DNA from: a virus
Lineage: Duplodnaviria; Caudoviricetes
Strand: one strand, 5' to 3'
Virus record (IMG/VR): IMGVR_UViG_3300046010_010196
Location: 1-42,183 of that record
Length of the DNA: 42,183 nt
Part shown: piece after piece, positions 75-17,662 of the stretch
How positions within the stretch are numbered: position 1 is the stretch's first letter
Layout of the letters: the number at the start of each line of letters is the position of its first letter
Program-made: the position numbers and the translations under genes
Notes under the pieces: model-generated
Database searches by the model: none
Seen by the model: the letters and a program-made list of their open reading frames with translations, nothing else
What the model was told of the DNA's origin: nothing

Positions 75-458
75 ATGGTTGCGATGAGAAACGGCTCTGC
101 TGAGCATGTCGACTTTGGGTTCATGGCCGGATGGGTCGAGACCAACAAGAAGGCGATGCCGTCTAACATCGACGGAGTGATGGAGAGGAACGGATACTTT
201 CTGTTCATGGAGTGGAAGAGGGCTGGAGAGCAGGTTTCTCTCGGGCAAAGCATCCTGTTGTGCCAGCTCGCGAAGCTGGACAGGGCATTCGTCATACTCG
301 TGCACGGGCACAGTAACTCAAGCGGAAGGGAAGTGCTGGGAGTTTCTGCGATTCGTAAAGACGGCTCAGAAGAGTATCTTGGAGACGGCGAGAAGACACT
401 GCTTGAAGTAGTGCGTAAATTTTATAGCTATGCCGAGTCTAAGAATGCTGTGCACTGA
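75..458 (+). CDS. Hypothetical protein, PD-(D/E)xK nuclease-like
   Basis: SD AAGGAG at 64-69 before ATG 75; motif SNIDG...FLFMEWK...SLGQ resembles the D...ExK restriction-endonuclease-like core. Confidence 0.5.
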   Translation: MVAMRNGSAEHVDFGFMAGWVETNKKAMPSNIDGVMERNGYFLFMEWKRAGEQVSLGQSILLCQLAKLDRAFVILVHGHSNSSGREVLGVSAIRKDGSEEYLGDGEKTLLEVVRKFYSYAESKNAVH

Positions 459-1803
459 AATAGCAAGCCCCGCTCTGTGGGCGAGAAAAATATCCGGCGG
501 CAAGTTCAAGATACCTCGCCACGTTGCATACCTAGATGACGTTGTTGTAAAAGCAATCACCGGGCAAGGCCCGAATAGAATTGTCTGCTCGATGCCACCA
601 AGGCACGGAAAATCGTTCTATATTTCAGAGCACCTGCCGGCGTGGTATGCAGGAATGTTTCCAGACAATCACGTCGTGCTCACGAGTTACGAAGCAGACT
701 TCGCAGCGTCTTGGGGTGCCAAGTCACGCGACCTGTTAGCAAACTCTGAGGACAACTTGCTCGGTGTAAGGATTGACCCGCTAAAGAAAAGTGCGAACCA
801 CTGGAAGATTGACGGGCATAGGGGCGGGGTCTCGACTGCGGGAGCCGGCGGAGCTCTTACCGGAAAGGGAGCTCACCTGCTAATTATCGACGACCCTATT
901 AAGAATTCCGAGGAGGCCCAGAGCGAGACTCAGCGAAATAAACTATGGGACTGGTTCCGCTCCACGGCTTACACTCGTATTGAGCCCGGCGGAATCTGTT
1001 TAATTGTCCAGACCAGATGGAATCAGGACGACCTCGCAGGGCGTGTTATCTCCGAGCTGTCTTCCGTGGAGCCTTGGGAGGTTATCTCGTTTCCTGCTAT
1101 CGCAGAAGAGAATGACGTTCTCGGGCGAAGTGTCGGCGAGGCACTTTGGCCGGAACGAAGGCCGCTTGAGGAGCTGCTGAAGATAAAGTCAACAGTTGGC
1201 CCTTACTGGTGGAGCTCGTTGTATCAGCAGAGACCGACGCCGGCAGAGGGCGGGCTGTTCAAGCTTGAGTACTTCGAGACGTTCTACGAGAACCACCCCA
1301 AGATTAAAAAGTCTTGCAGGTTCTGGGACTTGGCCGCAACCAAGGGGACCTCTTCTGATTATACAGTTGGGCTTTTGCTTGGTATTTCAGAGGACGATAA
1401 TTTCTACGTCCTCGATGTAGTGCGAGGAAAATGGGAGCCATTCGAGCGGGACCGGGTAATCCGACAAGTCGCCGAGCTCGACGGATACGATGTAAAGATT
1501 AGAATGGAGAAGGAGCCCGGGGCGTCTGGGGAATCTCTGATTGACACTATGGGCAGAAAGCTGACGGGCTTCAACTTTCGCGGGATTCGCTCAAGGGACA
1601 GTAAAATGGCCCGGGTGAATTCAGTTGACGGCATTGCAAGTATGGCTGGAGTTGGCCGATTAAAAATCTGCAAGGGCCTTTGGACTCGCGAATTCATGGA
1701 TGAATTGGTTATGTTTCCCAATGGCACTCACGACGACCAAGTGGATTCTCTGTCTGGTGCCTACAGGGCTCTGACTCAAGAAAAGCAAGTATTCGTTGCA
1801 TAA
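430..1803 (+). CDS. terL: Terminase large subunit
   Basis: Walker A MPPRHGKS, Walker B LLIIDDP, coupling motif QTRW, nuclease motifs FWDLA, SDYT and HDDQVDS; start may be ATG 445. Confidence 0.95.
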   Translation: MPSLRMLCTEIASPALWARKISGGKFKIPRHVAYLDDVVVKAITGQGPNRIVCSMPPRHGKSFYISEHLPAWYAGMFPDNHVVLTSYEADFAASWGAKSRDLLANSEDNLLGVRIDPLKKSANHWKIDGHRGGVSTAGAGGALTGKGAHLLIIDDPIKNSEEAQSETQRNKLWDWFRSTAYTRIEPGGICLIVQTRWNQDDLAGRVISELSSVEPWEVISFPAIAEENDVLGRSVGEALWPERRPLEELLKIKSTVGPYWWSSLYQQRPTPAEGGLFKLEYFETFYENHPKIKKSCRFWDLAATKGTSSDYTVGLLLGISEDDNFYVLDVVRGKWEPFERDRVIRQVAELDGYDVKIRMEKEPGASGESLIDTMGRKLTGFNFRGIRSRDSKMARVNSVDGIASMAGVGRLKICKGLWTREFMDELVMFPNGTHDDQVDSLSGAYRALTQEKQVFVA

Positions 1804-1812: not shown

Positions 1813-4800
1813 ATGCCGTCATCACAAGAAATCGCTGCAGCAATGGCTGCTGCGGACAAGAATAATCGCCTTGTAAAAGTAGAGCCCATCGCGAAAGAAA
1901 ACGTCAAGGCGTTTCCGGCGTTTGGAGAGAACTTCGGGCTCCGGATTGCAATGGCCGGGGCGATGCCGGGCGGATGGTCCAGCGACCACCGAAGCGAGAC
2001 AGACAAATTCAGCGGCTGGCACTATATCGCCATCCATGCAATTTACAAGCAAATCATTCAGGCGACGGTCGAGGTTTATGAACATCGGCTGACGGTCCCG
2101 AATATCAACAAGCCACCGCAACCCGCACCGGGTACACCTCCGGGGATGCCCCCGGGGATGCCGCCAGAGCAGCAACAGTTTCCGGGTGCAGCACCGCCTC
2201 CCGGGAATTTCACCAAGGGGATGAACGAGCAGGCCGATAACATGGTGCCGATGCCGAGTTACGACCCATTCCTGAAGAAGCTGAAGAAGCCCAACCCGAA
2301 CCAAACTCTAGGCTCTTTCAACGGCGAGCGAGCAATGCAGCTCTGCTTGACCGGCCGAGTACTTATCTGGAACGTCCGCTCAATCCTTACCGGCTCTATT
2401 ATCGAGCGGTATGTAATCCCAACCTGCCTTGCTTCACCTCGCCCTCCTTCGAAGGAGCTCCCGAGAGGCGGCTGGTATGTTCTGCCGGAAGGTGCAAGGT
2501 ATGCAGAAGAGGCCGGCTATTATATGGTCGGCTCCCTCGAAGCGGCTTTCGGAAAAACAATTCCCGCCGAAGACATTCAAATCATCAAGTTCCCTCACCC
2601 TCGATTCAAGGATGATGGGCAATCACCAGTCTCTGCGGGTGCTCTCTGGACAGATACTTCAGAGATGGTAGATAGGTCTCGGCACAACCATCTCAAGCAA
2701 GGTCCGGACCCGTCCGTCGTTATTGGTCTGGATGGTGACGTTGACGAGATGAGCATTCGCCGCGCGGAAGCGGCTTTTAATGACAGGTACGCCGGCCCAG
2801 AGAATCACGGCCGTGCGATGTTCGTCACTCCTACAAAGACCGTCCAGCCGCTGACCACGGCACCAAAGGACATGTCTTACGAGTCTGGATTCGAGCAGCT
2901 CCGAGACGCCCAGCTTGCCTTACACGGAGTCCCTCTTGCCGCGGTGGGCTTGTCCTCTCCTTCCGGCCGAGAAGGCTTGTACGCTCCTCTGCTGCAGTTT
3001 ATCGAGCTGTCTGTACAGCCACTGCTCACGCTCTTGGGCGAGGAGGATAGTGCTCTATTCAACACAGGCCGAGAGCACGACATCCAAATCGTGTACTCTG
3101 CAAAGAAGTTCAACGACGAAGACCTGCTAGAGAAGCAGATTCAAACCGATATCTCTGCCGGCGTTTTGACCAAGGGCGAGCTGAGAAAGCTCCGCGGTCG
3201 AGAGCTGTTTGGAGACGAGCGTGACGAAGAGATGTGCGGTGCTTCAGGTGGAGCTCCTCCGGGAATGCCGGGGATGCCGGGAATGCCGCCGGGTTTCCCG
3301 CCGGGTCAGGTGCCCGGTGCTCCGAACCAAGAAGAGCCACCCGCAGGCCAGCCGACCGTATCCAACCCAGAGCAGCAAGCTCCCGGCCAGATGCAGATGC
3401 CTATGGGCCGTGCTATGTCCTCGAACAAGCCGAGGCTTGCGGCACAAATCGCAAAGGCACTCGCAAAGCAACTGGAGGCCTACGGAATCCTAAAGGGAGG
3501 TCCGGGTTCCGGGAACCACGGTCACTCCGGTCGACCGGGTCAGGTTGGTGGCTCTGCCCCTGATGACGGTGGCGGCGGCGGAGCGGCAGGAACATCTCCC
3601 AGTTCGTCTTCACGCCCGAGGGCTGCAGCTAACCCTGCATCGGGGTCTCTAGACGAGTCCACCAGAAGGATATTGTCTCGTGCGGCTTGGAGTGCCCGCA
3701 ACGGAATCGGTGGCCAAGAAGACTTCCAGACAGCAATCCGCGACGTTATGACTCCGTCTCCTTACAGTCAAGCTCCATCGAGAGAACAGGCGGAAGCATA
3801 TTACAGGCACGAGAATGAGCTGCTGACCTCTTACAGGACTCACAGCACTGTGGGTGGGCGGAATCAGTACGCCAGAGAGCGAGCCAAAGAGACAGATAAC
3901 TTCGCAACGATATCTCACGGCGAGTCCCGCCGAATCCTGTCTGGCATGTCCGCAAACGGAGAACAAGGCTGGAAGATTGCAACTGCAATCGCTAATACCG
4001 GAGATGCAGAGCTCCTCGCAAGAGGGCTGGCTTCTTTCGGAATGGACAAGGATGCAATCGAGCAGGCCGTAAATCTAAACAATGCACTTCACGCTGGCCA
4101 AGCGAATGCAAAAGAGGTTGCTAGGTCTGCAATTGAACACGTCTCGGACGCTTCGCAAGCGGTTGGAGCCAAGAGCACACTAGAAGACCTCATTTCCGAT
4201 TTTACTACCGGCTCTGCACATAATCGCCTAAACGATATTAGCGACGTCGCTGACCCGTTCGCGGAAGCCCGAGCTCAAGCGGCCGTTGAACCGCCGGTCC
4301 GTGGCAGGGTTAATCCGTTTGACCGCGATGCAGTGACAGCAAATGCAATCGACCGTACTGAGACCGTAACAAGCGAATCTGGAATTGAGCGTAAGATTGG
4401 ACCTCGCGAAGCACCCGAGGCTATAGATGGGACTGATGTCAAAGAGACCAAGCTGATTAAAGACATCAAGGAGCGGGCCTCTAAAATCAAGGTGACCGAC
4501 GAAGAACCTATTGGTGACTTTGATGAGGACGAAGCCAGAGACAATGCCGAGCGTGATTGGGAGGGCAGTTCCGAGCAATCCTCAGCCGTTCAGGAAGAAC
4601 TCGAAAGAGGTGCTGAGAATCTTCGCCACTTCACAGCCATCCCGGACAGCTTGCCGAGCAGCGTCGGACAAATGCTTGAGGATTACTACGCAGACCTAGG
4701 AGATAGGATTGGGGACGGCGACATAAATAAAATGTCCCCGGATACTCTTGTCGAGGAGACGGAGTGGTTCTTCAGGAACAAAAAAGATGAGATAGAAAAC

Positions 4801-7320
4801 CAGCTGATAATCGCATCCAATGGAGATGGGGAGAAGCTAAAGCAGCTTCAAGAAGAGTTCTCCGACTGGAAGGACACGTCAATTCAAGAAGCTAGAGGCC
4901 AAGCAAGCAACGTCTCTGATGCAGTTTATGAGCACTACAGAGAATATGAATCTGTATACATTGACCAAGCACAGGTAGACCATGCTTCTCAGGGCGGGGA
5001 TAATATCCCTGACGAGATGACTTGGCAGAGAGGTAGCTTCAAATTCAAAACTACTTCTGGCAGTGGATACGAGATTCAAATGTCTGAGTCTACAAGGCCA
5101 TTAACTGCAAAGCAAAAACAGGAAAGCGGAAGGGACTCCATAACTGGGTACGACCTGATATTTACAGACGCAAGCGGGAGCGTTTCGATAACAGGCGAGA
5201 ACACCGAAGCGAAGAAAAAGAGCGGGCGTTCGGATGAGCTTGAAGTGTTCCGGACAGTTAGCTCGTCTGTTCTCGGTTTCATCCAAAACAAAGATGCAGA
5301 CGTCCTTACGTTTACTGCAATTGAAGAGAAGCGGCAGAAGCTCTACGACAAGCTCACGCAGACGATTGCTAGAATCGACGGCAAGTACGTTGCGGTATCT
5401 ACCGGAGGCGGGCGTAGAGCGGCTCACTACTACGTCGTGAAGCGAGAGCTCAAGCCTTACGTTGAGCAGATGATACGCGAGAAGGCAGGCAGTGCTGACC
5501 TAAAGATTGACTGGCTGGTGAAGCGGTTCCCGGGCGGGTACGTGAAGTCATCGAAGCATGGATGGGTGCAGGTCCGAGACTTCCATTTCAAAGGCGGTCC
5601 GGGTTCCGGAAACTTCGGACACGCTGGACGTCCGGGTGAAGTCGGAGGTTCCGCTCCTGACGACGGTGGCGGTGGCGGTATGGCCGGCACTTCCCCATCG
5701 GAGAAGAAAGAGAAGAAGCCTGCAGCGACAGGGAAGACAAAGAAGCCCGCCGGGAGCAAGGTTCCCAAGGCTGAGAAGGAGCCAAAAGCCAAGAAGGAAA
5801 AAGCACCGAAGGCCGAGAAGGAGAAAATCTGGCCCAAGGACTTAGAGAACCCTAGGGTTATGCAGGTTCACCCGGATGCAAAAAAAACGCACAGCCGTAC
5901 CAGTGCAATTCAAATCGACACCAAGGACATCGACAAGAAAAAAATTGACTTCTCGCCAACACACGACCTAGCAAAATGGAATAAAGAGAACGGGTACGCC
6001 CGGAAGGGCGTTGGCTCAAACATTGACCTAGTAGACTACGCCAAAGAACTAGACAAAAATTACGGAGGCCCTCCCCGTCCGCTGCTTGATGAAAAGGGCA
6101 ATATAGACGTAGAGAACGTCGAATACGCTGCACGTTCAATTGCAGATTTTGCACAAGAGGCCAAACGCAGAGACCCGAGCTGGCCTCTGTGGTACGGAGA
6201 GATAGAAGACATAACAGTCGACCTCTCCGAAGAAGAGGGCAAGTTCAACTTCTCTCCAAAGTCTAGGGAGCTTCTCCAGACCGAGTCCGGCGGAAAGATG
6301 TTTGTTAGTATTCTTGCGATGACATCGCAGGAAGGAACTCCAGACGAGAACCTGCGCTCGACGAAGAACCTCTACGACTTTTACACCGCGAACGGAAGGC
6401 TTCCAAGTCAAGCGGAAGCAGAGAAGCTTGTTGTCGGAAAAGCGGCTAAAGACGTCGCGGGCAACATGGTCAAGTACGCAAAAATCGTCGACCACTTTAA
6501 GGGCGATGTGGCCAAGGCTTTTGACTTTTTGAACGAGCCGATTCAAGCTGGCCAGCTTCAGGCGGTTATGACGAAAATCGGAGTAGAGTGTTCATCGGCT
6601 GACGCTTTCTCTAATCAATATGTCCCGAAGTCATATGTTTTTGGTCCAAAAATTGGTGCGTTCCACGCCAACCTTGGCGGCATGCCTGACTTGCTTACGC
6701 AGGACAGGTGGCTAACAAGGACAATCGGTAGAGTTACCGGTCAAATTGGGTTTACCGAAGAGCAGATTGTAAGCACATGGACAGAGGCTCTTAATTCTAA
6801 GGACGCCCCAACTGCGGAGCATGTTCGAATTGCCGGGATGAGTGCTCTAAGCATTAAGGCCGCGGTTAAGAAGTGTGCCGAAGGCGGAGAGCTAACCGAC
6901 GCTGAGTACAAAGGACTTAATCGACTAGCACAGGCTCACGTATCGAGCAGCCCTAAAAAGAAGGCAGAGAACCGGGTAATCACGCGGAACGACTTCACTA
7001 CGAAGCTCAATACCGCCATGAAGAAGATAACGACCGTCGTCGACACCCCCGGCTCTTCGATGTCTCGACACGTAAACCAGTTGGTCGCAGAGACGGCATC
7101 CAAAATTCTTACCCAGCGTGGCGAACCGATGACGGTCCGTGAAGTACAGGCTGCAATATGGATGCTTGAGAAAAAAATGTGGTACGAAGCCGGGGTCGGG
7201 AACAAGCGTGGCGGGGAGAATAGCTACAAGATGGCCCTTGAGAACCTGAGAAAGAACGGCGAACCTTCTGTCGAAGAACAGAAAAAAAGAGACCGAGAAT
7301 CAGCAAATGACGACGAATAA
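1813..7320 (+). CDS. Portal protein (N-terminal ~480 aa) fused to a ~1300 aa multidomain cargo extension
   Basis: Directly follows terL; HK97-type portal-like motifs (GQSPV, RYAGPENHGRAM, KDMSY...LR..HGVP, GVLTKGELRKLRG); then a Pro/Met linker and two GGPGSGN-tagged modules; one uninterrupted ORF. Confidence 0.85.
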   Translation: MPSSQEIAAAMAAADKNNRLVKVEPIAKENVKAFPAFGENFGLRIAMAGAMPGGWSSDHRSETDKFSGWHYIAIHAIYKQIIQATVEVYEHRLTVPNINKPPQPAPGTPPGMPPGMPPEQQQFPGAAPPPGNFTKGMNEQADNMVPMPSYDPFLKKLKKPNPNQTLGSFNGERAMQLCLTGRVLIWNVRSILTGSIIERYVIPTCLASPRPPSKELPRGGWYVLPEGARYAEEAGYYMVGSLEAAFGKTIPAEDIQIIKFPHPRFKDDGQSPVSAGALWTDTSEMVDRSRHNHLKQGPDPSVVIGLDGDVDEMSIRRAEAAFNDRYAGPENHGRAMFVTPTKTVQPLTTAPKDMSYESGFEQLRDAQLALHGVPLAAVGLSSPSGREGLYAPLLQFIELSVQPLLTLLGEEDSALFNTGREHDIQIVYSAKKFNDEDLLEKQIQTDISAGVLTKGELRKLRGRELFGDERDEEMCGASGGAPPGMPGMPGMPPGFPPGQVPGAPNQEEPPAGQPTVSNPEQQAPGQMQMPMGRAMSSNKPRLAAQIAKALAKQLEAYGILKGGPGSGNHGHSGRPGQVGGSAPDDGGGGGAAGTSPSSSSRPRAAANPASGSLDESTRRILSRAAWSARNGIGGQEDFQTAIRDVMTPSPYSQAPSREQAEAYYRHENELLTSYRTHSTVGGRNQYARERAKETDNFATISHGESRRILSGMSANGEQGWKIATAIANTGDAELLARGLASFGMDKDAIEQAVNLNNALHAGQANAKEVARSAIEHVSDASQAVGAKSTLEDLISDFTTGSAHNRLNDISDVADPFAEARAQAAVEPPVRGRVNPFDRDAVTANAIDRTETVTSESGIERKIGPREAPEAIDGTDVKETKLIKDIKERASKIKVTDEEPIGDFDEDEARDNAERDWEGSSEQSSAVQEELERGAENLRHFTAIPDSLPSSVGQMLEDYYADLGDRIGDGDINKMSPDTLVEETEWFFRNKKDEIENQLIIASNGDGEKLKQLQEEFSDWKDTSIQEARGQASNVSDAVYEHYREYESVYIDQAQVDHASQGGDNIPDEMTWQRGSFKFKTTSGSGYEIQMSESTRPLTAKQKQESGRDSITGYDLIFTDASGSVSITGENTEAKKKSGRSDELEVFRTVSSSVLGFIQNKDADVLTFTAIEEKRQKLYDKLTQTIARIDGKYVAVSTGGGRRAAHYYVVKRELKPYVEQMIREKAGSADLKIDWLVKRFPGGYVKSSKHGWVQVRDFHFKGGPGSGNFGHAGRPGEVGGSAPDDGGGGGMAGTSPSEKKEKKPAATGKTKKPAGSKVPKAEKEPKAKKEKAPKAEKEKIWPKDLENPRVMQVHPDAKKTHSRTSAIQIDTKDIDKKKIDFSPTHDLAKWNKENGYARKGVGSNIDLVDYAKELDKNYGGPPRPLLDEKGNIDVENVEYAARSIADFAQEAKRRDPSWPLWYGEIEDITVDLSEEEGKFNFSPKSRELLQTESGGKMFVSILAMTSQEGTPDENLRSTKNLYDFYTANGRLPSQAEAEKLVVGKAAKDVAGNMVKYAKIVDHFKGDVAKAFDFLNEPIQAGQLQAVMTKIGVECSSADAFSNQYVPKSYVFGPKIGAFHANLGGMPDLLTQDRWLTRTIGRVTGQIGFTEEQIVSTWTEALNSKDAPTAEHVRIAGMSALSIKAAVKKCAEGGELTDAEYKGLNRLAQAHVSSSPKKKAENRVITRNDFTTKLNTAMKKITTVVDTPGSSMSRHVNQLVAETASKILTQRGEPMTVREVQAAIWMLEKKMWYEAGVGNKRGGENSYKMALENLRKNGEPSVEEQKKRDRESANDDE
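3493..3567 (+). repeat. Peptide tag copy 1 (KGGPGSGNHGHSGRPGQVGGSAPDD)
   Basis: Read from the translation, K561 of the portal fusion. Confidence 0.95.
5590..5664 (+). repeat. Peptide tag copy 2 (KGGPGSGNFGHAGRPGEVGGSAPDD)
   Basis: Read from the translation, K1260 of the portal fusion; shares the extension GGGGGxAGTSPS with copy 1. Confidence 0.95.
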
Positions 7321-7373
7321 CCGTAGACGCAGAGAATATCTTGGATATAGTTGTGACCGGAGGGCGATAGAAA

Positions 7374-9200
7374 ATGGCTGATAAGCAACTTGAAATGGGT
7401 GAGGAGCTGGTCTTGCCGAGCATGGAGGAGGCTTTAATGGGCCTCAGCGACGTGCAGTTCGACAGCCTACTGTCGGAGCTGTTTAAGCTTTACGAGAAAG
7501 GCACGGGTCCAAAGTCTTTTGCCGGCCAGACTCCTTGGTTTGGCCACAAGAAGAAGTTTACCGGCTTCACAAAGGCCGAAGAGAAGGTCGACCAGTGCGG
7601 TGCCGGCTCTTCCGGCGGTGGCGGTTTCGAGCCCGGCAACACTTGTGCCGCAGGAGGCTCTGGGGGCTCTTCTGAAGCCGGGTCGGCTTCTGGCGGGTCA
7701 GACGCCGCACCTAAGCAAGAAAACGCGGCAGCGGGCAAGCCAGCGGCCTCTAGCGGGGCTGCAGGCGATAAGCCTAAGCCCGAGCGGTGGAACGTGGAGA
7801 AGGACATCCCGACGGCCGCTAAAGAGGGGGGGTTTACTTTTCACCCCAAGTCTGGCAAGTCTCCAACCACCGGCTTTGCCGTTTCAATCTTCCCAGAGCA
7901 CGAGCGTATTCTGGACTTGGAAAATGTCACTCAAGACGAGATGGACAAGTACCGGGAAGACACTCGGTCAGCTTGGGAGGGTGACCCGAGGGTACATCTA
8001 GGGGGGTGGCACAACGTCGGGGAGGACGGGAAGTTCTACTTGGACGCTTCGAAGATTGTGGACACCAAGGAGGAGGCTATCGCACTCGGCAAGGAGCACG
8101 GCCAGCTTGCGGGTTATGACGTGGAGCGGGGCGAGGTGTTCCAGATTAGCACTCGCGAAGAGCGGGACGAGTATCAGCGAAAGAAGACGGAGCTTGCGAC
8201 TGGCCAGATTCGACAGGAGAAGACTACTCCGACAGCGAACGGGGCAAATGCCTACAATCCTTACGTAGAAGCAGACAACGACGGAGACGGTATAACCGAT
8301 GCTTCCCGGGTTGGCATTGGAGGGCGAGATGTTGTCCCGCCACCAGAGGTTCCTAGAATGCCGAACCTCACGAAAGAGGAGCGGAGAGTCGAAGAGCGGT
8401 TTGCTCGTACGTTTGAGATGTATCCTCAAGAAATGGCGGACGCTTACACCGAGATGGTGAAGAACTCGGAGAAGCCAAACACATTCGAAACAGATGGAGC
8501 GAAGCTGATGTCCTCTGCGTGGAACGACTCGGACGATAACATACAAGCTGAGAAGCGTGGCCGATACAATGTCGCACTTCACCAGACCGCAAATGCAATT
8601 GCAAAGAGAGCTTTCACGGACTACGTCTCCAAGCTACCTCCGGGCTCAGAGATTCTTGTCACCGTAGGCGGGTGCGGTGCCGGGAAGGGCTACGCCTTAA
8701 AACAAATCCCGTCCGTTGCTGGCCTATCGAAATCTTCCGCCGCTGTGTGGGATTCCGCTGGAGACCAGAACGGAACGGAGAGTCCTTGGATTCAAGACCT
8801 AGCTGAGCTACACGGGCACAAGGTCACGTACGCATACATCCACAACGACCCGTACAGGCAGTGGGCAGACCCGGGCCGGGGTGTCGTAAAAAGGGCGAAC
8901 GACCCAGCTGATGGCCGGATGGTCGACGCCTCTGTGTTCGCTGACTCGTACGCAATCGGGGCGAAGAACTTTGCAGCGTTCAAAGAAACGCACAAGGACA
9001 ACCCAAACGTAAAGTTTGTGATTATCGACTCTACAGGGAAAAAGCCGAAGCAAGTGAACGAACTGCCGCCAGCTGCACTTCAGGTAGACCGAAAGCACCT
9101 GACGCAGTTTGCTGCTTCGACTGTTGCGAATCGGGGCGTTGCTCCGCGTGTTAAAAGAGGGGCTCTTGTTGGTGCACGAATTTGGAAGGAAAACGAATGA
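7374..9200 (+). CDS. Multidomain putative head cargo protein with a C-terminal zeta-toxin-like P-loop kinase
   Basis: SD GGAGG; Gly-rich CGAGSSGGGGFEPGNTC motif; middle domain GGFT..SGKSPTTGFAVS...LGGW...YLD; P-loop VTVGGCGAGKG (8667-8690) and downstream KRA...GRMV lid-like motif. Confidence 0.7.
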   Translation: MADKQLEMGEELVLPSMEEALMGLSDVQFDSLLSELFKLYEKGTGPKSFAGQTPWFGHKKKFTGFTKAEEKVDQCGAGSSGGGGFEPGNTCAAGGSGGSSEAGSASGGSDAAPKQENAAAGKPAASSGAAGDKPKPERWNVEKDIPTAAKEGGFTFHPKSGKSPTTGFAVSIFPEHERILDLENVTQDEMDKYREDTRSAWEGDPRVHLGGWHNVGEDGKFYLDASKIVDTKEEAIALGKEHGQLAGYDVERGEVFQISTREERDEYQRKKTELATGQIRQEKTTPTANGANAYNPYVEADNDGDGITDASRVGIGGRDVVPPPEVPRMPNLTKEERRVEERFARTFEMYPQEMADAYTEMVKNSEKPNTFETDGAKLMSSAWNDSDDNIQAEKRGRYNVALHQTANAIAKRAFTDYVSKLPPGSEILVTVGGCGAGKGYALKQIPSVAGLSKSSAAVWDSAGDQNGTESPWIQDLAELHGHKVTYAYIHNDPYRQWADPGRGVVKRANDPADGRMVDASVFADSYAIGAKNFAAFKETHKDNPNVKFVIIDSTGKKPKQVNELPPAALQVDRKHLTQFAASTVANRGVAPRVKRGALVGARIWKENE

Positions 9201-9571
9201 GCAGCGGATTTAACTTCGGCGACAATACGGAACCGATGCAGGGCGAGGGAATGCAGGGCGGAGAGATGCAGGGCGAGGCACCCTCACCAGAAGAGCTTTC
9301 GTTCGACGACGCGGAACGGCAGCACTATCGCAACCTTGCAGGGCAAGCCCGAAACAATCCGTTCTTTGTCCAGTGCGATGAAGAGATTTTCGAGCTCAAC
9401 GACGATGGCTCCGAGCGGGTCCACGGAAAGAAGGACAAGCCTGAAAACAAAGAAGCTCCAGAGGGCGAGCTTGCTGATGAGCAGGTCGCTACTGATGGGG
9501 ACTCCGAAGAAGAGCAGAGCCCGGAAGAAGACGGCGACACCTACACGGACATCGACGACGAGGACTTTTAA
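9197..9571 (+). CDS. Highly acidic small protein, candidate inhibitor/antitoxin
   Basis: ATGA overlap with the upstream stop; very Asp/Glu-rich; contains a 3x MQGxx tandem repeat (9236-9277). Confidence 0.6.
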   Translation: MSSGFNFGDNTEPMQGEGMQGGEMQGEAPSPEELSFDDAERQHYRNLAGQARNNPFFVQCDEEIFELNDDGSERVHGKKDKPENKEAPEGELADEQVATDGDSEEEQSPEEDGDTYTDIDDEDF

Positions 9572-12500
9572 TGCACTGGCTAGGATTGCTTAAGGGCGGG
9601 CCCGGTTCCGGGAACTTTGGTCATGCCGGCCGTCCGGGCGAGGTTGGTGGCTCTGCTCCTGACGGAGAGCAAGGCTCTGGTGAGTCTAGCTCGAAGGTTC
9701 GCCAATGGGCTGAGAGTAAATTCAAGGACAAGGAAAAGGCAGACAGCTTTTCCAGTTGGTTTAGAGGTTCAAAGGTCACAAGCGATAGCGGCGAACCGCT
9801 GACGGTGTACCACGTAACAACCGAGGACTTCGAAGAATTCGACCCCAAGATGGGTGCTCAGGGCGTGGTCTGGTTTACCTCAAACAAAGAGAAGATTAAC
9901 AGCAGCGAAACCGGTGCATCGCTGAGGCCGGGAAAAACTCCGCGGATAATTGAAGCTCACCTGTCAATCCAGAAGATGGCCGGCTGGGATGAGTATGAGA
10001 AGTACAGCCTTGACGAGCTTGAAAGCCAAGGTTACGACGGGGTCAAACTCGACGACGACTACATCATCTTCGAAGCTAATCAAGTGAGGCAGGTAAAGCC
10101 AGAAGCAGAAGGCTCGGGCAAGTCGAGCCCGAAGGTTCGCCAATGGGCGGAGGAGAAGTTTAAGGACAAGCAGACCGCTGAGAACTTCGTGCGGTGGTTC
10201 GGTGATTCTAAGGTGGTCGACAAGGACGGAAACCCGCTGAGGGTGTTTCACGGAACCACTGAGAATTTTGAAGAATTTGATACTTCGATTAGATTGACAG
10301 ATGGTCGCGACCGTGCCGCGTTCTTCTCGGATTCTGAGATAGTTGCTGCTTCTTACACAGAACACCAGCCTCTCGAAGAAAAGAAAAGAATGACAGAGGC
10401 GGAAAACTTGAGGGCTGAGCTTGAGTCAGAATACGACAGGCTGACCGGCGACCTTCCGCCCGAAAGAGAAAACGCTTTTATTCATGCGATTAACAACGCA
10501 GAGGGTGTTTCGGTTGATGAAGCGAACCGCCTAATCGACATGCGTGACCGTCTTGAGAAACTAGAAAGCGGGCTTGATTTAGAAGAAAGTGCGGCACTTT
10601 ATGATTCAAAAAAACCGCAGATGAAGGCGGTATACCTCTCGCTGCAGAATCCGTACATTAGCGACTCAAAGGGAGGCAGAAGTGATTGGACGGTTCCAAC
10701 GATACTCCAGAAAGTAGACCGTTCAAAGCACGACGGGATTATTTTTAGAAACATTGTGGACACTGGAGATGGAACAAACACAGTCTCGACGGTTTATGCC
10801 GTGTTCTCGCCGACCTCTATCAAGTCAGCCATCGGCAACTCAGGGACGTTCGACCCCGACAATCCGAACATCACCAAGAGCCATAAGGGGTTCCATCAAT
10901 GGATGAGTCTCGTAAAAGGATTCACCCCGGATAGTTCTAAAATCGCAAAGTCTGTCGATAGAATTGAGGCGATGACTCTGGAGTGCTTGCGGCATATCAA
11001 GGGCGGTCCGGGCTCTGGCAACTTTGGTCACGCCGGGCGTCCCGGCCAAGTCGGCGGCTCTGCCCCTGATGACTCTCCTTCTAGCAGCTCATCGGCTCCG
11101 AAGGATGTACCGAAAGCCCCGGCCGAACCCCGGGACACAGACTTGGTCACGCTCGGAAAGTACGATGACCCGGTCGACGTTACTGGCAAGCGAAGGGTAA
11201 CCCTGTTTCACTACTCCTCTGACGACAGAAGCGATTCTGGACTTCAGCGGAAGTACGCTGGAACGGCCGGTGCCGGAGAAGAGAAACGCTCATTCGAATA
11301 CGACAAAGAAGGGAAGCTGATAGAAGAGTCTGCACCGATTCACGCTTATATGTATGGTGCCAAAAGAGAATCAATGGTCCCGGGCAAGGTTCTACACCGG
11401 ATAGATACCGAGCTTAATGTAATCGACGTCACCAGCAAGGAGTATGCAGACATTCTTGCAGAGGCACAGAAAGAGGCAGAGAAGACCGGCCGGCCTATGC
11501 TTGCGATGGCTCGGGTAATTACGAGACAACGCGGCTACGACGCCCTCGCGAGCACCAGAGACGGTATCGTGCAAATCCTGAGAGACGTAAGCCCTGCTGA
11601 GCTGGAGACAGTCGGCAAGAAAGGTGCTTCCACTAAAATTGGATACACTCCGAAGCCACCAGCAGACAGTGATTACGTTGACGAATACAAGAGACGGTGG
11701 GAGACAAAGATAAGCAACCTAGCCAAAGAGAAGCCAGAGGTCGAAATATATTCGCTGAACAACGGTGCGGACGTTATGGTGAATATGGGGCTTCTCAGCA
11801 AGGAAGACAGACACGCAGTTGTTGGAAACCTAGTCGGAAGAGAGCTGACCTTAGAAAAAGTAAACGCCACTGTCGATGAGCTTATAAGCAAGATTCCAAA
11901 GTCTGCACGAGAGAAGGATGTCGAGTACATAAAAAACTACTGGAAGTACGCAATCGTAGCAGGAAAAAGCAAAGAAGAGATTCAGGCGAACATAGAAGAG
12001 CAGCAACGGAACCTGCTGAAAAATGTAAACAATCGGGTTGCTGTTCGCGTACCGCTTGAGTTTGTTGATAGCGTGATTAAGGACGGCCGTCTAAAGTCGC
12101 AATTCGAAACCGGAGAATCAAAGGGTGCACTGGACCCGCAACTCCGAAGAAACGTGGAGTACAACGGCTTTGGAGTGCCGAGAGACCATCCAGCGGACAA
12201 GAGGCCCATTTACGGGTACATGGCAGACGAGTCCGCCAGCATGCACAACACCACGCTTGAATACTACGGCGGCATCGCCTTGATTATGAAAGATGAAGTC
12301 AAGGAGCGGTCTACGGTCACCTTCGGCGACTCTTTGGACAACGGCCTGCCGGCAAGCGATATAAAATCTCCGAGCCTCACTTCGATGAGAGTTGTTGAAG
12401 GTGTTCTCGATGAGGATAGCTTTACTTACATCGAGGCACAGCTGCACGGAGGGGTTAGCATCGACGACGTGAAAGAGGTTGTGATTAACGAGTTTACGAT

Positions 12501-12759
12501 GAGAAAAATCATCAAGTCATACTCTCTTATCCCAGCAAGCGAAAATTCGAAACTGCCTTTTGGCAACTTCGACCGCGGCGGAAGGCTTCTTAGCAGTGAC
12601 TTAAAAATATCAGTCTGCTCGATTAACAAGCGTGGGGAGCCCGGAGTTGTAAGGACCTTGGAAGACTGGATTGAGTCTAGCGATTACAAGAACACACACT
12701 GGGACACCCCAGAGGGTCGAGTTTTTGCAGAGAAAGTGAGGAAGAGAAGTGGAAGATAA
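9571..12759 (+). CDS. Polyvalent protein with two ART-PolyVal-like ADP-ribosyltransferase domains and a C-terminal DUF3626-like domain
   Basis: Two WFxxSKV.D..G.PL.V(Y/F)H.T...F.EFD units ending in GYDG or HDGII and IKSAIGNSGTFDP; C-terminal LKSQFETG..RPIYGY..YG..ERSTVTFGDSL..YIEAQLHG; two GGPGSGN tags. Confidence 0.8.
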   Translation: MHWLGLLKGGPGSGNFGHAGRPGEVGGSAPDGEQGSGESSSKVRQWAESKFKDKEKADSFSSWFRGSKVTSDSGEPLTVYHVTTEDFEEFDPKMGAQGVVWFTSNKEKINSSETGASLRPGKTPRIIEAHLSIQKMAGWDEYEKYSLDELESQGYDGVKLDDDYIIFEANQVRQVKPEAEGSGKSSPKVRQWAEEKFKDKQTAENFVRWFGDSKVVDKDGNPLRVFHGTTENFEEFDTSIRLTDGRDRAAFFSDSEIVAASYTEHQPLEEKKRMTEAENLRAELESEYDRLTGDLPPERENAFIHAINNAEGVSVDEANRLIDMRDRLEKLESGLDLEESAALYDSKKPQMKAVYLSLQNPYISDSKGGRSDWTVPTILQKVDRSKHDGIIFRNIVDTGDGTNTVSTVYAVFSPTSIKSAIGNSGTFDPDNPNITKSHKGFHQWMSLVKGFTPDSSKIAKSVDRIEAMTLECLRHIKGGPGSGNFGHAGRPGQVGGSAPDDSPSSSSSAPKDVPKAPAEPRDTDLVTLGKYDDPVDVTGKRRVTLFHYSSDDRSDSGLQRKYAGTAGAGEEKRSFEYDKEGKLIEESAPIHAYMYGAKRESMVPGKVLHRIDTELNVIDVTSKEYADILAEAQKEAEKTGRPMLAMARVITRQRGYDALASTRDGIVQILRDVSPAELETVGKKGASTKIGYTPKPPADSDYVDEYKRRWETKISNLAKEKPEVEIYSLNNGADVMVNMGLLSKEDRHAVVGNLVGRELTLEKVNATVDELISKIPKSAREKDVEYIKNYWKYAIVAGKSKEEIQANIEEQQRNLLKNVNNRVAVRVPLEFVDSVIKDGRLKSQFETGESKGALDPQLRRNVEYNGFGVPRDHPADKRPIYGYMADESASMHNTTLEYYGGIALIMKDEVKERSTVTFGDSLDNGLPASDIKSPSLTSMRVVEGVLDEDSFTYIEAQLHGGVSIDDVKEVVINEFTMRKIIKSYSLIPASENSKLPFGNFDRGGRLLSSDLKISVCSINKRGEPGVVRTLEDWIESSDYKNTHWDTPEGRVFAEKVRKRSGR
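9592..9663 (+). repeat. Peptide tag copy 3 (KGGPGSGNFGHAGRPGEVGGSAPD)
   Basis: Begins at residue 8 of the 1062 aa ORF. Confidence 0.95.
10999..11073 (+). repeat. Peptide tag copy 4 (KGGPGSGNFGHAGRPGQVGGSAPDD)
   Basis: K477 of the 1062 aa ORF. Confidence 0.95.
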
Positions 12760-12979
12760 GCGCAAGCTCGGAAGGGTAATCGCCCGCCGAGGCTCGGATG
12801 CCTTGAGTGTCTCGCGAGAGGCTGGCGGAAAAAGATACGGATACATCGTCTTCGGAGACGGCTCTGTATCGGAAGAGGTCAACGTGGACTCGGTTATCTC
12901 TCGCGGGTACTGGTCTCCGGTCTCTGGCTCTGAAGCACTCAAAAGCTACATCAAGGCACTGGAAAATGGACCCGGCTAA
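12749..12979 (+). CDS. Small hypothetical protein, candidate immunity partner of the DUF3626-like domain
   Basis: GTG start with GAGG upstream, overlaps the upstream stop and fills the gap to the MuF start; protein-like composition (VDSVISRGYW). Confidence 0.55.
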   Translation: MEDKRKLGRVIARRGSDALSVSREAGGKRYGYIVFGDGSVSEEVNVDSVISRGYWSPVSGSEALKSYIKALENGPG

Positions 12980-13583
12980 CAGACGAGAGCACGAGTCCGA
13001 CATGATGCGGCTAATCGGTGCAATTGCCGAAAGGTGCGGGCAGTCGAAGACAAAGGAGGGCATGTTCGATTGCATCGAACTGTTCGACCTTGAGAGCAAG
13101 ATGTTGGACATCTCACAGGAGGCCTACGAGGCTCTCTTGGTGCAGCTAAGCATTCGGGCTATGCCAAGGATGCCGCAGGAGCTAGTGCGAACTCTGTTTA
13201 TTGAATTCGCAGACAGGGCCGCGGAGCTCGCGATAGAGGGGAAGATAAACGAGGCTTGGGTGTCGGTCGCGGCAGTGACTATGACTACAAAGCTCTGGAG
13301 TATCGGAGAGTCTCTCGCGGTAGACCACGCAAGAACTAGATTCACCCAGTACACGCCGCACACCAAAGCGTTTCAAGGGATTCCTGTCGAACTACTTCGA
13401 AGTGCAACCCGGATGAAGATTGTTTCCATATGGAAGGCCGAAGCGGATGCCTGTGAAATTTGCAAATTCCTAGAGAACAACGTGATTGAGTACATCGCCT
13501 ACGACGGCCCGCCGGCTCACCCAAACTGCAGGTGCTGGGTCGATTACTCGGTCGAGGCAGCTGGAGTGGAAGAGCCCGAATGA
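12966..13583 (+). CDS. MuF / SPP1 gp7-like minor head protein (short form)
   Basis: C-terminal W....DACEIC..L......GPPAHPNCRC signature; start placed at ATG 12966 rather than 12807. Confidence 0.8.
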   Translation: MDPANRREHESDMMRLIGAIAERCGQSKTKEGMFDCIELFDLESKMLDISQEAYEALLVQLSIRAMPRMPQELVRTLFIEFADRAAELAIEGKINEAWVSVAAVTMTTKLWSIGESLAVDHARTRFTQYTPHTKAFQGIPVELLRSATRMKIVSIWKAEADACEICKFLENNVIEYIAYDGPPAHPNCRCWVDYSVEAAGVEEPE

Positions 13584-13924
13584 GACCAGTTGGATTCAGG
13601 GTTACCAGTGCTTGGCCGATGATGCGGCTGCTTGAGTACTCTCAAGGCAATTGCCCGTGGCTTGATGAAGCGGAGATGGAAAGGCTAAAGTCCTTTTCGT
13701 TAAAGTGCCGGATACTGCAGACGAGGAAGGCGGTACAGATATCAGATACAATCATTGAGGAGCTAGACGTAGCAATCAAGCTTCTTGGTTTGATGTCCAG
13801 ACATGCCATCCAGCTAGTCGGAGAAAAACATGCTGCTACGTGCGGTGCCAATGCTAGGTCGACACGACTGAAGCTTGTTGAAATCAGAGCAAGACTTGAC
13901 TTAACGGGGAGCCCTAATGAGTAG
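13580..13924 (+). CDS. Hypothetical protein
   Basis: ATGA-coupled to the MuF stop. Confidence 0.5.
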   Translation: MRPVGFRVTSAWPMMRLLEYSQGNCPWLDEAEMERLKSFSLKCRILQTRKAVQISDTIIEELDVAIKLLGLMSRHAIQLVGEKHAATCGANARSTRLKLVEIRARLDLTGSPNE

Positions 13925-14234: not shown

Positions 14235-14236
14235 CA

Positions 14237-14265
14237 TTGCAGCAAATTTCAGTATCTTGTAGATT
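14237..14265 (+). promoter_or_regulatory. Possible sigma70-like promoter for the protease/capsid genes
   Basis: TTGCAG-17 nt-TAGATT in an AT-rich intergenic gap. Confidence 0.3.
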
Positions 14266-14285
14266 TTCAGGCCGGAGGGCGAGCA

Positions 14286-15743
14286 GTGGCTAACAATTCA
14301 AATCTAAACGGCGTGTTTTCTAACCCAACAGTGGGAACCGTCTTTGAGGTCGACACGGCAAAGATGTCTGCTTCGGCAATCATCTCTACCCCAGCAGTAG
14401 ACCGTGTTGGGGACTCAATGGACCCGCTCGGGTGCGACCTTACACAATACCGCCTGAACCCGGTTGTGTTCTGGAACCACGCTTTTGATGGGTTTACAAA
14501 GCCTATCGGTATCTCCGAGAACAGCTCTGGAGAGCTCCAGATTTTCCCGTCTGGCGAGAACATCAAGGCGACCTGCTATTTCACGAACAAGTTTCTCGAA
14601 GCCGAGCAGATTTTCGACCTTGTAAACGAAAAAACTATTCGGGCAACCTCGATTCGGTTCGACCCAATTGGCTCTCCCTCGCGGTCCGGCGGGGTCCAGC
14701 GATTCTCTAAATGGTATCTTTTAGAGTGGAGTTGGGTGCCGATTGGTTGTAATCCTGAGGCGGTACAGCAGGTGCTTGCAAAGGGGTATCTTGCCGGCCG
14801 GCGTATTTCGAGTGGGATTACAAAGTCTCTGGAGTTGTTGCTTCCGGAGAAGAAACTGCAAATTGCTGGTTACAACTTTAAGAAAGATGCTAAAATGCGT
14901 TTCGTTAAATCGTGCGATGACAACAAAAAGTGCAATTGCGACAAAGACCCGCTCGGCGGCGAAGTGAAGATGACCAACGATAAAGAACGACCAGAAGACG
15001 CTCCACCGCCGGGAACAAAGCCGGCTCCGATGCCGCCATCTTCCGGTTATTCGTCGGCTCCTCCTGCAGCAGGCAAGACTCCACCCCCGGGCGGAAAGGT
15101 TCCTCCCCAGAGCGGAAGGGTTCCTCCCCAGAGCGGCAAGCCGGGCGAAGAGGAATATAAAGGCAACATGGACGAAGAGTCCGAGTCAGAAGACATTGCA
15201 GGGGACGGCGAGGAAGCAGAGACTCCAAAGGCTTACGGAGCACAGCTCGTCGAGGCCGCTTACAACGCACTCAACGAGGTCCGGGTAAACATCAAGGAAG
15301 GCTCTGTAGCACTTGAGCACCCAGAAATCGAAGCCTTGATTGCAACCACTCTCGAAGCTCTCGGAATGATGATGAGCGAAGTGGAAGCAGCTTACGCCAA
15401 GTCATACGTCCGGAACCCAAAATACAACTACTCTCCGCTTGCCAGCTCCGGACGTCGTCTGGATTGGCACGACAACCTCAAGTCATTTTTGGCTGGAGGC
15501 GCGAGCAATCGGTTTGCTGTTAGCGGAATTGCTGAGCGAATCCGTAGCGTTGCAAAGTCCGGCACAGTTAGCGGCCGCGAAGCCGACGTATTGAAGTCTT
15601 GTGCAACACAATTGCAAGGGTTCGTAGAATCTGCTCGTTCCAACGTGAGGCACGAGAGCAATGGTGTTGTCGGTGACAGGCTTGAGTCTATCACTAAATC
15701 TTCGGATGCCACGTTGGCCATCCTGAAGAACATGAAACGCTAA
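14286..15743 (+). CDS. HK97-family prohead protease with a C-terminal scaffold-like extension
   Basis: STPAVDRVGD, NPVVFWNH...PIG, SIRF, LLEWSWVPIGCNPEA; Pro-rich, acidic and helical C-terminal half; lies directly upstream of the capsid gene. Confidence 0.9.
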   Translation: MANNSNLNGVFSNPTVGTVFEVDTAKMSASAIISTPAVDRVGDSMDPLGCDLTQYRLNPVVFWNHAFDGFTKPIGISENSSGELQIFPSGENIKATCYFTNKFLEAEQIFDLVNEKTIRATSIRFDPIGSPSRSGGVQRFSKWYLLEWSWVPIGCNPEAVQQVLAKGYLAGRRISSGITKSLELLLPEKKLQIAGYNFKKDAKMRFVKSCDDNKKCNCDKDPLGGEVKMTNDKERPEDAPPPGTKPAPMPPSSGYSSAPPAAGKTPPPGGKVPPQSGRVPPQSGKPGEEEYKGNMDEESESEDIAGDGEEAETPKAYGAQLVEAAYNALNEVRVNIKEGSVALEHPEIEALIATTLEALGMMMSEVEAAYAKSYVRNPKYNYSPLASSGRRLDWHDNLKSFLAGGASNRFAVSGIAERIRSVAKSGTVSGREADVLKSCATQLQGFVESARSNVRHESNGVVGDRLESITKSSDATLAILKNMKR

Positions 15744-15764
15744 CCTTTTACCCAGAGGGTCAAA

Positions 15765-17640: not shown

Positions 17641-17662
17641 TCGACAACAGTACCACTTCACG

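Follow-up and report, generated by a model that had tools for sequence, protein, structure and literature searches.

Apart from T4 and a few giant phages, little is understood of the way in which internal proteins are chosen, loaded and ejected by small tailed phages. The window analysed here, a stretch of 42,183 nucleotides from a lake phage that makes up the Caudoviricetes record IMGVR_UViG_3300046010_010196 of IMG/VR, raises this problem through a single gene. The open reading frame at 1813-7320 (+) runs without an internal stop through a portal and a 1,350-aa extension beyond it. What is this extension, and does it stay on the portal? We propose, as a reasonably probable reading, that the product is a portal-cargo polyprotein whose modules would be loaded into the prohead, cut loose and ejected with the DNA. 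The features discussed are collected in Table 1.

Table 1. Features of the portal gene and its neighbours (a slash marks a predicted cut)
Feature	Position	Strand	Basis
Terminase large subunit	430..1803	+	profile searches
Portal-cargo polyprotein, 1835 aa, 200 kDa	1813..7320	+	ORF translation
HK97-type portal core, about aa 40-480	1930..3252	+	PF04860 match aa 151-462
NFTK/G motif (K135), N-terminal insertion loop; possible nick site in portal core	2206..2220	+	inferred
Pro/Gly/Met-rich linker, then helix with IAK/A (K548) and ILK/G (K561), likely protease sites	3253..3495	+	sequence
Module 1, aa 562-1260, 76 kDa, net charge -29	3496..5592	+	sequence
Tag copy 1, GGPGSGNHGHSGRPGQVGGSAPD (aa 562-584)	3496..3564	+	pN/pS 0.06 vs L001
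Part 1a of module 1, about aa 610-830			
Part 1b of module 1, acidic helical bundle, about aa 860-1060			
Domain 1c (aa 1065-1240), alpha/beta; DUF6934-like, weakly GNAT-like fold	5005..5532	+	
Spacer with YVK/S (K1245) and HFK/G (K1260), likely protease sites	5533..5592	+	sequence
Tag copy 2 (aa 1261-1283)	5593..5661	+	sequence
Module 2 domain (aa 1400-1820), predicted HhH-glycosylase-superfamily fold	6010..7272	+	structure model
608-aa stand-alone cargo candidate: second tag type (CG..GGF..GNTC, aa 75), P-loop-like GGCGAGK motif	7374..9200	+	
1062-aa stand-alone cargo candidate: 8-aa leader ending in K, tag, ART-PolyVal domains, second K/tag (aa 478), DUF3626	9571..12759	+	
Short MuF-like head morphogenesis protein	12807..13583	+	phrog_4728, E 2e-4
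HK97-like prohead protease (H65, S122, E147 motifs), C-terminal scaffold part rich in x-K/S sites	14286..15743	+	phrog_80, E 2e-8
HK97-type major capsid protein, likely delta-domain junction CFK114/AVQG	15765..17045	+	profile and motif

The portal core and its reading frame

The first-pass annotation had taken the N-terminal region for a portal, an identification upheld by several matches. PF04860 aligns with aa 151-462 (E 4e-22, 79.1 bits against a curated cut-off of 39.1), phrog_12 with aa 157-527 and the HK97-family portal 6te8 by PDB sequence (E 9e-4), and the gene is placed between those of the terminase large subunit and the MuF, protease and capsid proteins. The TIGR01537 portal_HK97 equivalog cut-off was missed (33.8 bits versus 112), and the core found no match among 50,697 GenBank phage records. 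By its profile matches, the protein is thus only a divergent member of the wider HK97-type family, not a TIGR01537 equivalog. The HK97 portal is not known to have a cargo extension. Within the core, K135 of the NFTK/G motif is invariant in 19/19 aligned portals and marks a possible nick site.

Behind the core, the same annotation had described a PPGMPGMPGMPPG linker, a cluster of IAKA, LAKQ and ILKG, and two C-terminal cargo modules; we find linker, cluster and module boundaries where it had put them. The repeated tag, the module folds and the three-part build of module 1 (1a, 1b, 1c) are additional to that description. The frame had also been called continuous, with no stop missing, and read support across 3240-3500 had been proposed as a check. 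Assembled contigs from four other runs, rather than raw reads, served for this comparison: X6 record 18 (2006-3595; 4 differences) and X7 record 24 (1847-5102; 1 difference) bridge the junction without gaps, and X6 records 20 and 21 cover 4341-5718 and 5696-7600. All indels listed measure 12 nt or 3 nt, or come as close +1/-1 pairs. In addition, pN/pS is below 1 in 11/11 regions tested against the relative L001 (0.04-0.46).

An assembly or sequencing artefact, or a stop codon lost in this genome alone, could in principle have produced so long a frame: the same portal family includes short members of 469-518 aa, and continuity is pieced together from overlapping assembled contigs, none of which covers the entire gene. 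We consider this reading very improbable indeed, and a frameshift or missing stop was rejected on the bridging contigs, the long relatives and pN/pS. Contigs from other runs cross both junctions in frame, and purifying selection extends along the entire gene. Moreover, when relatives were compared for variable C-terminal extensions, a length-restricted search gave 19 long portals including this protein, the 18 others being 1,213-2,266 aa long; seven of these (79-94% core identity) have the same two-module layout and 11 carry other cargo. A Schlesneria prophage also has a related long portal. The cargo of related portals is an ADP-ribosyltransferase, a GNAT or an Acb1-like (2H) domain instead, or is absent.

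A repeated tag and the residue before it

Both modules open with one tag, GGPGSGNxGHxGRPGxVGGSAPD, at aa 562 and aa 1261, immediately after a lysine. The tag also occurs twice in the neighbouring 1062-aa cargo gene, and lysine precedes it in 4/4 copies of the window. Over the long portals and two window genes, K/[GSAT] lies 1-5 residues upstream of the tag in 59 of 61 instances, a count over related rows, one of them a duplicate of the query; the tag of the 608-aa gene has no adjacent K/[GSAT]. Synonymous sites have diverged between the tag copies, which places the conservation at the protein level. A DNA-level recombination box found no support as its cause, since the copies have 50-53 of 66 nt in common and agree at only 6-10 of the 17-18 synonymous-capable codons. 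The tag bears a resemblance to a DUF5681/AT-hook-like motif; that identity was rejected, with no match at the tags in five records, and 0/7 tag peptides matched Pfam at E<=10.

The position before the tag proved informative. Among IMG/VR loci, 189 unique tags in 105 viral locus groups are preceded by K (69), D (48), L (43) or another residue (29), and this P1 residue is phage-specific (K, D or L). Groups with at least two tags are uniform at the preceding residue in 26 of 35 cases, compared with a mean of 6.3 (maximum 15) in 10,000 shuffles, and pair concordance is 202/225 at P1 versus 0.11-0.25 at P2-P8. In a comparison of 33 chosen proteins, PF04586 was matched by 4/4 other K-type head-protease candidates, and DUF2213 strongly by 10/10 of the D type and weakly by 5/6 of the L/M/A type. 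The capsid-protein junction, read by eye, is K/A in 5/5 K-type, D/[SGA] in 10/10 D-type and L or A in 5/5 L-type sequences, and K/A[VI]QG recurs in 6/6 relatives. The DUF2213 proteins are putative head proteases, and all junctions are predicted ones. Because the P1 residue varies together with the family of the head protease and with the apparent capsid junction, it likely marks a cut by the maturation protease; the K, D and L types represent only a few lineages, so the covariation does not amount to many independent events.

Motif and covariation favour a predicted cut between Lys and a small residue where the modules join. K561 and K1260 are each at least 90% conserved; the spacer in front of module 2 has a pN/pS of 0.04 against L001, but of 0.76 against the relative L193. 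Hydrophobic-K/[GSA] sites account for 11/35 lysines of the delta domain and protease tail versus 42/432 in control genes (p=7e-4, which is optimistic because the class was picked after viewing the sequences; plain K/[GSA] gives p=0.09). The mature capsid protein has 3/14 such sites too, and the cargo has 1/35 in module 1 and 4/64 in module 2. The window protease matches the PF04586 proteins L026 and L033 by phmmer; it has no Pfam match of its own, and TIGR01543 reaches only E 0.078. We are fairly confident that K561 and K1260 would prove to be prohead-protease cut sites. The locus thereby yields exact predictions, namely cuts at these two lysines and products of about 45-61, 76 and 63 kDa, and the cleavage rules of little-studied head proteases may be legible from genomes.

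Predicted folds and exchange of the modules

In module 1, structure comparison of part 1b matched only generic helical bundles. Domain 1c, only weakly GNAT-like in fold, is probably an acetyltransferase-like modifier: PF22028 matches it below cut-off (E 1.4e-4), its Atlas score is 0.90, and in a model longer than the domain VIA finds Mom, EctA and a GNAT at no more than Z 6.1-6.3. Foldseek returned nothing significant (E>0.01), with the RlmJ methyltransferase above the GNATs. With 1c as query, sequence searches of proteins about 91-324 aa long were negative, and a viral scan gave only four close loci.

Module 2 (aa 1261-1835, 63 kDa) is predicted with a pLDDT of 93.8 to adopt a two-domain helical fold. 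The best VIA match is the 8-oxoG glycosylase 3n0u (rmsd 3.8, 198 aligned), at a Z of 11.8; for helical proteins, the tool advises caution below about 13. The best 25 rows, comprising 22 DNA glycosylases, two queuine-salvage enzymes and one phage PUGT, form one structural group, and the first unrelated row has Z 5.2. GPK1613 and D1631 are invariant (conservation 1.00, 149 aligned sequences), while Q1779 and W1783 are nearly so. In hhalign, D1631 falls on the Nth Asp with the K out of register (probability 0.3%); the alignments to Nth and MutY are not significant, and glycosylases gave no significant Foldseek-PDB, PDB-sequence or profile match. The most likely role of module 2 is that of a Lys/Asp HhH glycosylase/AP-lyase, which would act on DNA early in infection. 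It could mend bases of the phage genome that are damaged or bear a host mark, or cut modified bases out of host or rival DNA.

Alternatively, module 2 could use its HhH fold to modify bases as a transferase, like PUGT, or to hydrolyse nucleosides, like Qng1; this concerns cargo function only and fits with release and ejection. For the queuine-salvage DUF2419, Z reaches 10.2 over 240 aligned residues (rmsd 4.2), and its Foldseek probabilities are the highest, 0.5-0.6, though not significant; the PUGT of phage PaMx11 scores Z 7.5. We regard this assignment as unlikely, given that the top VIA row is the 8-oxoG glycosylase, even though rows 2-8 lie within 1 Z of one another, and that the invariant G-x-K...D, with its 18-residue spacing, resembles the GRK...D of Schlesneria Nth with 19.

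The putative glycosylase has a wide family. DUF7178 (PF23802) has no match in the window, matches 3/30 module 2 homologs below cut-off, and makes up 20% within the clusters to which module 2 has an Atlas score of 0.96; on these matches, module 2 is related to DUF7178, not a member. Its homologs fall into 1137 clusters and, among those listed, are mostly giant proteins, one being a podovirus protein of 3,200 aa whose gene follows those for tail tube and lysozyme. ART-PolyVal or LPD23 stands alongside the homolog in 2/30 scanned proteins; BFVD matches are further evidence of domains shared among polyvalent proteins. A large unannotated family of glycosylase-fold candidate virion cargo is thus indicated. 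A search of the openly accessible literature found neither the tag nor this cargo with a glycosylase fold in print; a search for DUF7178 found no publication.

By sequence identity, modules have been exchanged between genes and lineages. Portal modules of the relatives P0010 and P0014 show 62% identity to the ART module encoded by the 1062-aa gene, and parts 1b and 1c turn up together in P0013, a protein with 52% identity in the portal core. The 608-aa gene has no Pfam match. As in other polyvalent proteins, at least two unrelated effector-type domains, of predicted activity, share one polypeptide in a virion-gene context, and these domains are common to, and shuffled among, such proteins. Because one relative has an Acb1-like domain there, portal tails may be a place to seek new anti-defence proteins.

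Proposed pathway and known systems

A portal is a dodecameric ring whose C-termini point to the capsid interior. Carried by the ring, each module would enter the prohead in as many as 12 copies. Cleavage behind K561 and K1260 by the head protease of the phage would likely free the modules, which would then probably leave with the DNA for the host. As a likely protease site precedes each module and the C-termini point inward, the cargo copies would lie loose inside the head. The first-pass annotation had placed the cargo at the DNA exit vertex; the modules are indeed on the portal, but lasting residence at the vertex is improbable in view of these sites. That the freed modules are ejected with the genome appears probable. 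Twelve copies of the cargo amount to 1.67 MDa and about 2,000 nm3, by our estimate some 1-2% of a head that holds a genome of this size. Since the portal-fused modules are already tethered yet retain the tag, the latter probably serves to sort or eject them after cleavage, not to load them.

A broader proposal is offered tentatively: GGPGSGNxGHxGRPG may be a portable ejection tag of unrelated phage head systems, each with the P1 of its own protease in front, by which any domain fused to the portal behind cut site and tag would be loaded at a fixed 12 copies, freed during maturation and injected, here an HhH glycosylase (family of more than 1,000 clusters) that would edit modified or damaged bases at infection. 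If so, module 2 would be a phage-side counterpart of host defence glycosylases. The locus offers a 20-residue candidate for such a tag.

The modules might be cut but not ejected, acting in the prohead or virion, for instance on packaged DNA, or departing or being degraded like scaffold peptides after late action in the producing cell. Propeptides freed by protease usually exit the head (PMC10052503), and module 1, with its net charge of -29, is scaffold-like in acidity. However, the modules have few internal K sites (1/35, 4/64), unlike scaffold parts, a strongly conserved tag is kept on the cargo side of each predicted cut, and the cargo of relatives (ART, Acb1-like 2H, GNAT) needs host substrates; we therefore hold such a fate to be improbable. 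Persistence of the modules on the portal, with lysine and tag as a relic of cassette fusion and the cargo acting under the vertex or before assembly, seems to us quite improbable. Engineered C-terminal fusions of the T4 portal (gp20-GFP, gp20-Hoc) do build into particles (PMC9026906), and stand-alone cargo genes open with leader, K and tag, from which a fusion would inherit lysine and tag. Yet this leaves unexplained the conservation of K561 and K1260 and a pre-tag residue that follows protease type, and a tethered enzyme would be out of reach of host targets.

Loading, release and ejection of portal-borne cargo can be set beside several known systems, as described in the accessible parts of the cited papers. 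Portal-fused effectors are, as a broad idea, already published (Iyer et al. 2017, PMC5512222): this work and its sequel (Iyer et al. 2022, PMC9503650) report PBECR, 2H, InPase, Nudix and ART effectors as portal or MuF fusions or as products of head-module genes, with packaging and injection predicted. ART-PolyVal is shared, in the neighbouring gene and on related portals. Release is there attributed to embedded peptidase domains, with neither an inter-module tag nor a head-protease site mentioned; in the main text of 2017, the word "glycosylase" has 0 occurrences. MuF polymorphic toxins offer another head protein whose C-terminal cargo varies and whose gene adjoins that of the portal (Jamet et al. 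2017, PMC5576092; "cleav" 0 times in the main text). Here the carrier is the portal, at 12 copies instead of 1-2, and MuF is short.

In T4, the internal proteins and Alt have a capsid-targeting sequence cut by gp21 (PMC9026906), and in SPN3US gp245 is processed and the portal itself is a protease substrate (PMC10052503). As proposed here, a head protease strips a propeptide and frees proteins for ejection; there an N-terminal leader is removed by a cut after Glu, whereas here the cargo is C-terminal on the portal, the modules stand in series, the predicted cut follows Lys and the tag stays on the cargo. A T4-type capsid-targeting sequence was rejected as the identity of the tag, which in the portal sits within the chain and follows the predicted cut; a CTS-like role is conceivable for the short leaders on stand-alone cargo. 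HK97, whose gp5 delta domain is cut at K103/S104 by the gp4 protease (PMC10275583), resembles this phage in its portal, protease and capsid families, gene order and Lys/small-residue junction. With HhH-GPD glycosylases (T. maritima OGG 3n0u, EndoIII/NTHL1, AGOG), module 2 shares a predicted fold, a candidate Lys/Asp pair and a Trp that is conserved; it differs in its 7-12% identity, an extra helical insertion (about model residues 245-342) and in being phage-encoded and portal-borne. Dag1 and Dag2, host-encoded defence glycosylases (bioRxiv 10.1101/2025.10.29.685425), are divergent HhH enzymes employed in phage-host conflict; module 2 is encoded instead by the phage.

Identity and conservation of the portal-cargo gene

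The gene lies in the order terminase, portal, 608-aa ORF, 129-aa ORF, 1062-aa ORF (ART-PolyVal and DUF3626), short MuF, prohead protease and HK97-type capsid protein, in a 42-kb record of 50% estimated completeness, whose source samples are mostly lake and freshwater metagenomes. The first-pass annotation had read its 1835-aa product as a portal encoded by a continuous ORF, and our analyses confirmed this. PF04860 exceeds its cut-off at aa 151–462, with further matches to phrog_12 and a solved HK97-family portal structure. The translation is free of stops, and the gene is covered by contigs (assembled contigs, not reads) from 4 runs not marked as possible sources, in which the listed indels keep the frame. 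Single records bridge 2006–3595, 1847–5102 and 4341–5718 without gaps, the first two across 3240–3500, and the longest reach is shorter than the whole gene.

A search restricted to proteins of 1009–3212 aa found 19 portals of 1213–2266 aa: the query itself, 7 that match it in both modules and 11 whose cargo differs, so that the C-terminal extensions are variable. In all 11 portal-gene regions tested, pN/pS is 0.04–0.46 against the related locus L001, and L193, which is more distant, gives 0.20–0.76, with near-saturated synonymous sites. The portal-cargo fusion is real and conserved, and the earlier interpretation is supported with refinement. A Lys at K135 is invariant in 19/19 portals, and K↓[GSA] (↓, predicted protease cut) is seen at this loop in short portals too; a nick in the portal core at this position is possible. 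Eight loci at 36–39% identity were found in genomes of Schlesneria (Planctomycetota), a moderate hint that the host group may be Planctomycetota/Schlesneria-like. Relative to that of the window, the terminase large subunits of four loci (L195, L196, L198, L201) carry an insertion of ~120 aa near the N-terminus.

Features of the window and of other loci
Feature	Locus	Position (strand)	Content
Portal-cargo ORF	window	1813-7320 (+)	portal core, linker, modules 1 and 2
K135 site	window	2206-2220	insertion loop after first portal helix, N-terminal part of core
608-aa protein	window	7374-9200	second tag type; C-terminal P-loop-like GGCGAGK motif
1062-aa protein	window	9571-12759	8-aa leader MHWLGLLK, Lys-tag unit, ART-PolyVal domains, second (internal) tag, DUF3626
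HNH-like ORF	window	37020-37559	sequence motifs only
Peptidase cluster	window	38984-41748	trypsin-like protease, papain-like peptidase, thioredoxin-like ORF (motifs only)
Prohead protease	L069	9499-11325 (-)	PF04586; own K↓tag unit at aa 428
Podovirus protein, 3,200 aa	L245 (MW202722.1)	9109-18738	module 2 domain; annotated 'crystallin beta/gamma motif-containing'
Related portal	L218	6388-8667	C-terminal 2H phosphoesterase after Lys-Ser site; Acb1 match E 1e-5, below cut-off

Tags and candidate head-protease sites

The tag GGPGSGNxGHxGRPGxVGGSAPD opens both modules, immediately past K561 and K1260. Across the long portals and the window genes, K↓[GSAT] lies at most 5 residues upstream of 59/61 tags, these rows being related and including one duplicate. 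An IMG/VR pattern scan returned 177 stretches (80 with flanks). Once overlaps were merged, 105 groups with 189 unique tags remained; the residue before the tag is K in 69, D in 48, L in 43 and something else in 29. This P1 residue is uniform in 26 of the 35 groups with at least 2 tags, against a shuffled mean of 6.3 and maximum of 15 (10,000 shuffles). Within multi-tag groups, tag pairs agree at P1 with a concordance of 0.90, compared with 0.11–0.25 at P2–P8, so the pattern is not a simple duplication of the flanks. The tag is conserved at the protein level: its pN/pS against L001 is 0.06, and the copies are unlike one another at synonymous sites. In the flanked loci, the ORFs with a tag comprise 11 portals, 2 MuF proteins, 1 protease and 72 other proteins, many with the tag inside the first 85 residues. 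More distant portals carry a second tag type, CG..GGF..GN.C, and since the 608-aa gene has it as well, two types coexist in one genome.

Among 33 chosen proteins, the candidate proteases of K-type loci matched PF04586 (4/4), those of D-type loci matched DUF2213 strongly (10/10) and those of L/M/A-type loci matched it weakly (5/6). The window's own protease gave no Pfam match; phmmer links it to the K-type proteases, and it also matches phrog_80. Plausible capsid-protein junctions, read by eye, are K↓A in 5/5 K-type, D↓[SGA] in 10/10 D-type and L or A in 5/5 L-type loci, with K↓A[VI]QG in 6/6 relatives; the reported HK97 cut is K103/S104 (PMC10275583). In the window, hydrophobic-K↓[GSA] makes up 11/35 lysines of the delta domain and protease tail, 42/432 in 26 control genes, 1/35 in module 1, 4/64 in module 2 and 3/14 in the mature capsid protein, a class picked after looking at the sequences (plain K↓[GSA], p=0.09). 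In two loci (L003, L043) the residue preceding the tag is Asn or His and the capsid protein has LVTN↓T, a fourth type that suggests another protease specificity.

Cargo and module exchange

Module 2 (aa 1400–1820) has homologs in 1137 clusters (E≤0.001), mostly of 1000–4000 aa among the matches listed, and its BFVD structural matches are annotated as ART-PolyVal-like or large polyvalent proteins. The podovirus homolog is encoded downstream of tail-tube and lysozyme genes, a usual place for ejection proteins, and is probably one itself. In VIA-align, the module 2 model (pLDDT 93.8) best matched T. maritima 8-oxoG glycosylase (Z 11.8, rmsd 3.8, 198 aligned); the top 25 rows hold 22 DNA glycosylases, 2 queuine-salvage enzymes and phage PUGT, and Z is down to 5.2 at the first row from an unrelated fold group. 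Foldseek and sequence-profile tests of module 2 gave nothing significant. Across 149 aligned sequences, conservation is 1.00 at Y1461, S1505, K1613, G1615, F1617, N1620, T1629, D1631, W1633, R1640 and G1643, and 0.99 at Q1779, W1783 and E1786. The Lys and Asp of Nth are catalytic, and the Lys-Asp spacing is 18 in module 2 vs 19 in Schlesneria Nth. A transferase or hydrolase instead of a glycosylase, a matter separate from delivery, is unlikely. Host defence uses divergent HhH glycosylases (bioRxiv 10.1101/2025.10.29.685425). Module 2 is related to DUF7178 and is not a member. Searches of the openly accessible literature found no paper on DUF7178, on the tag or on any code by which a head protease recognizes portal cargo.

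Module 1 has three parts: 1a, acidic helical 1b and alpha/beta 1c. Part 1c is weakly GNAT-like or DUF6934-like: its DUF6934 score is below cut-off, it aligns with GNAT proteins at Z about 6, and in Foldseek, where no match was significant, a methyltransferase ranked above GNATs. Parts 1b and 1c recur without the rest of module 1 on one long portal (P0013), and the ART module of the window's stand-alone gene shares 62% identity with portal modules of two others (P0010, P0014); the modules are mobile. The same portal family also occurs cargo-free (469–518 aa; 469 in L222), with GNAT or with an Acb1-like 2H domain, and has a third tag, RDxxGRF, preceded by Lys. Portals of ~950–995 aa (L204, L205, L223–L228; six in Schlesneria genomes) carry this tag as K↓[ST]FD..KH[PK]RD..GR, and their cargo is likely GNAT (PF00583, E 8e-4 in L204); that of L223 gave no Pfam match. 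The L218 cargo is possibly a virion-borne anti-CBASS protein.

The 1062-aa counterparts in L193 and L209 lack the ART match and keep both tags and the C-terminal part. The 608-aa protein, conserved in L001, L193 and L209, gave no Pfam match; by resemblance it may be a zeta-toxin-like kinase.

Proposed delivery and known systems

Because prohead assembly starts at the portal ring, with the portal C-termini inside, each module would enter the prohead in as many as 12 copies through its fusion to the portal. The computed 12-copy cargo, 1.67 MDa or about 2,000 nm3, accounts for a minor fraction of the head. The HK97-like protease that removes delta domains would likely also cut after K548/K561 and K1245/K1260, with predicted products of a 45–61 kDa portal and modules of 76 and 63 kDa, each starting with the tag. 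Cutting would be needed for delivery because the portal remains in the particle, and the tag most likely has a post-cleavage role in retention or ejection, because tethered modules still keep it.

Our preferred reading, a portal polyprotein whose tagged modules would be freed by the protease and delivered, is probably correct. An artefactual long ORF is extremely improbable in the face of the frame-keeping contigs from 4 runs, the 18 other long portals and the low pN/pS in every region tested. Modules that are never cut appear quite unlikely: the P1 residue tracking head protease and capsid junction is strong circumstantial evidence of the predicted cut site, and not proof, because the K, D and L types represent few lineages. 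Modules that are cut and then not ejected are also unlikely, though slightly less so.

Portal- and MuF-fused effectors with predicted injection (PMC5512222, PMC9503650) and MuF toxins (PMC5576092) have been described. In a phi24B preprint, a role in ejection is proposed for a polyvalent protein; the preprint adds nothing about tags. For SPN3US, the portal is already known to be cut by a protease (PMC10052503). The T4 internal proteins and Alt provide the precedent for head proteins freed by a protease and then ejected (PMC9026906).
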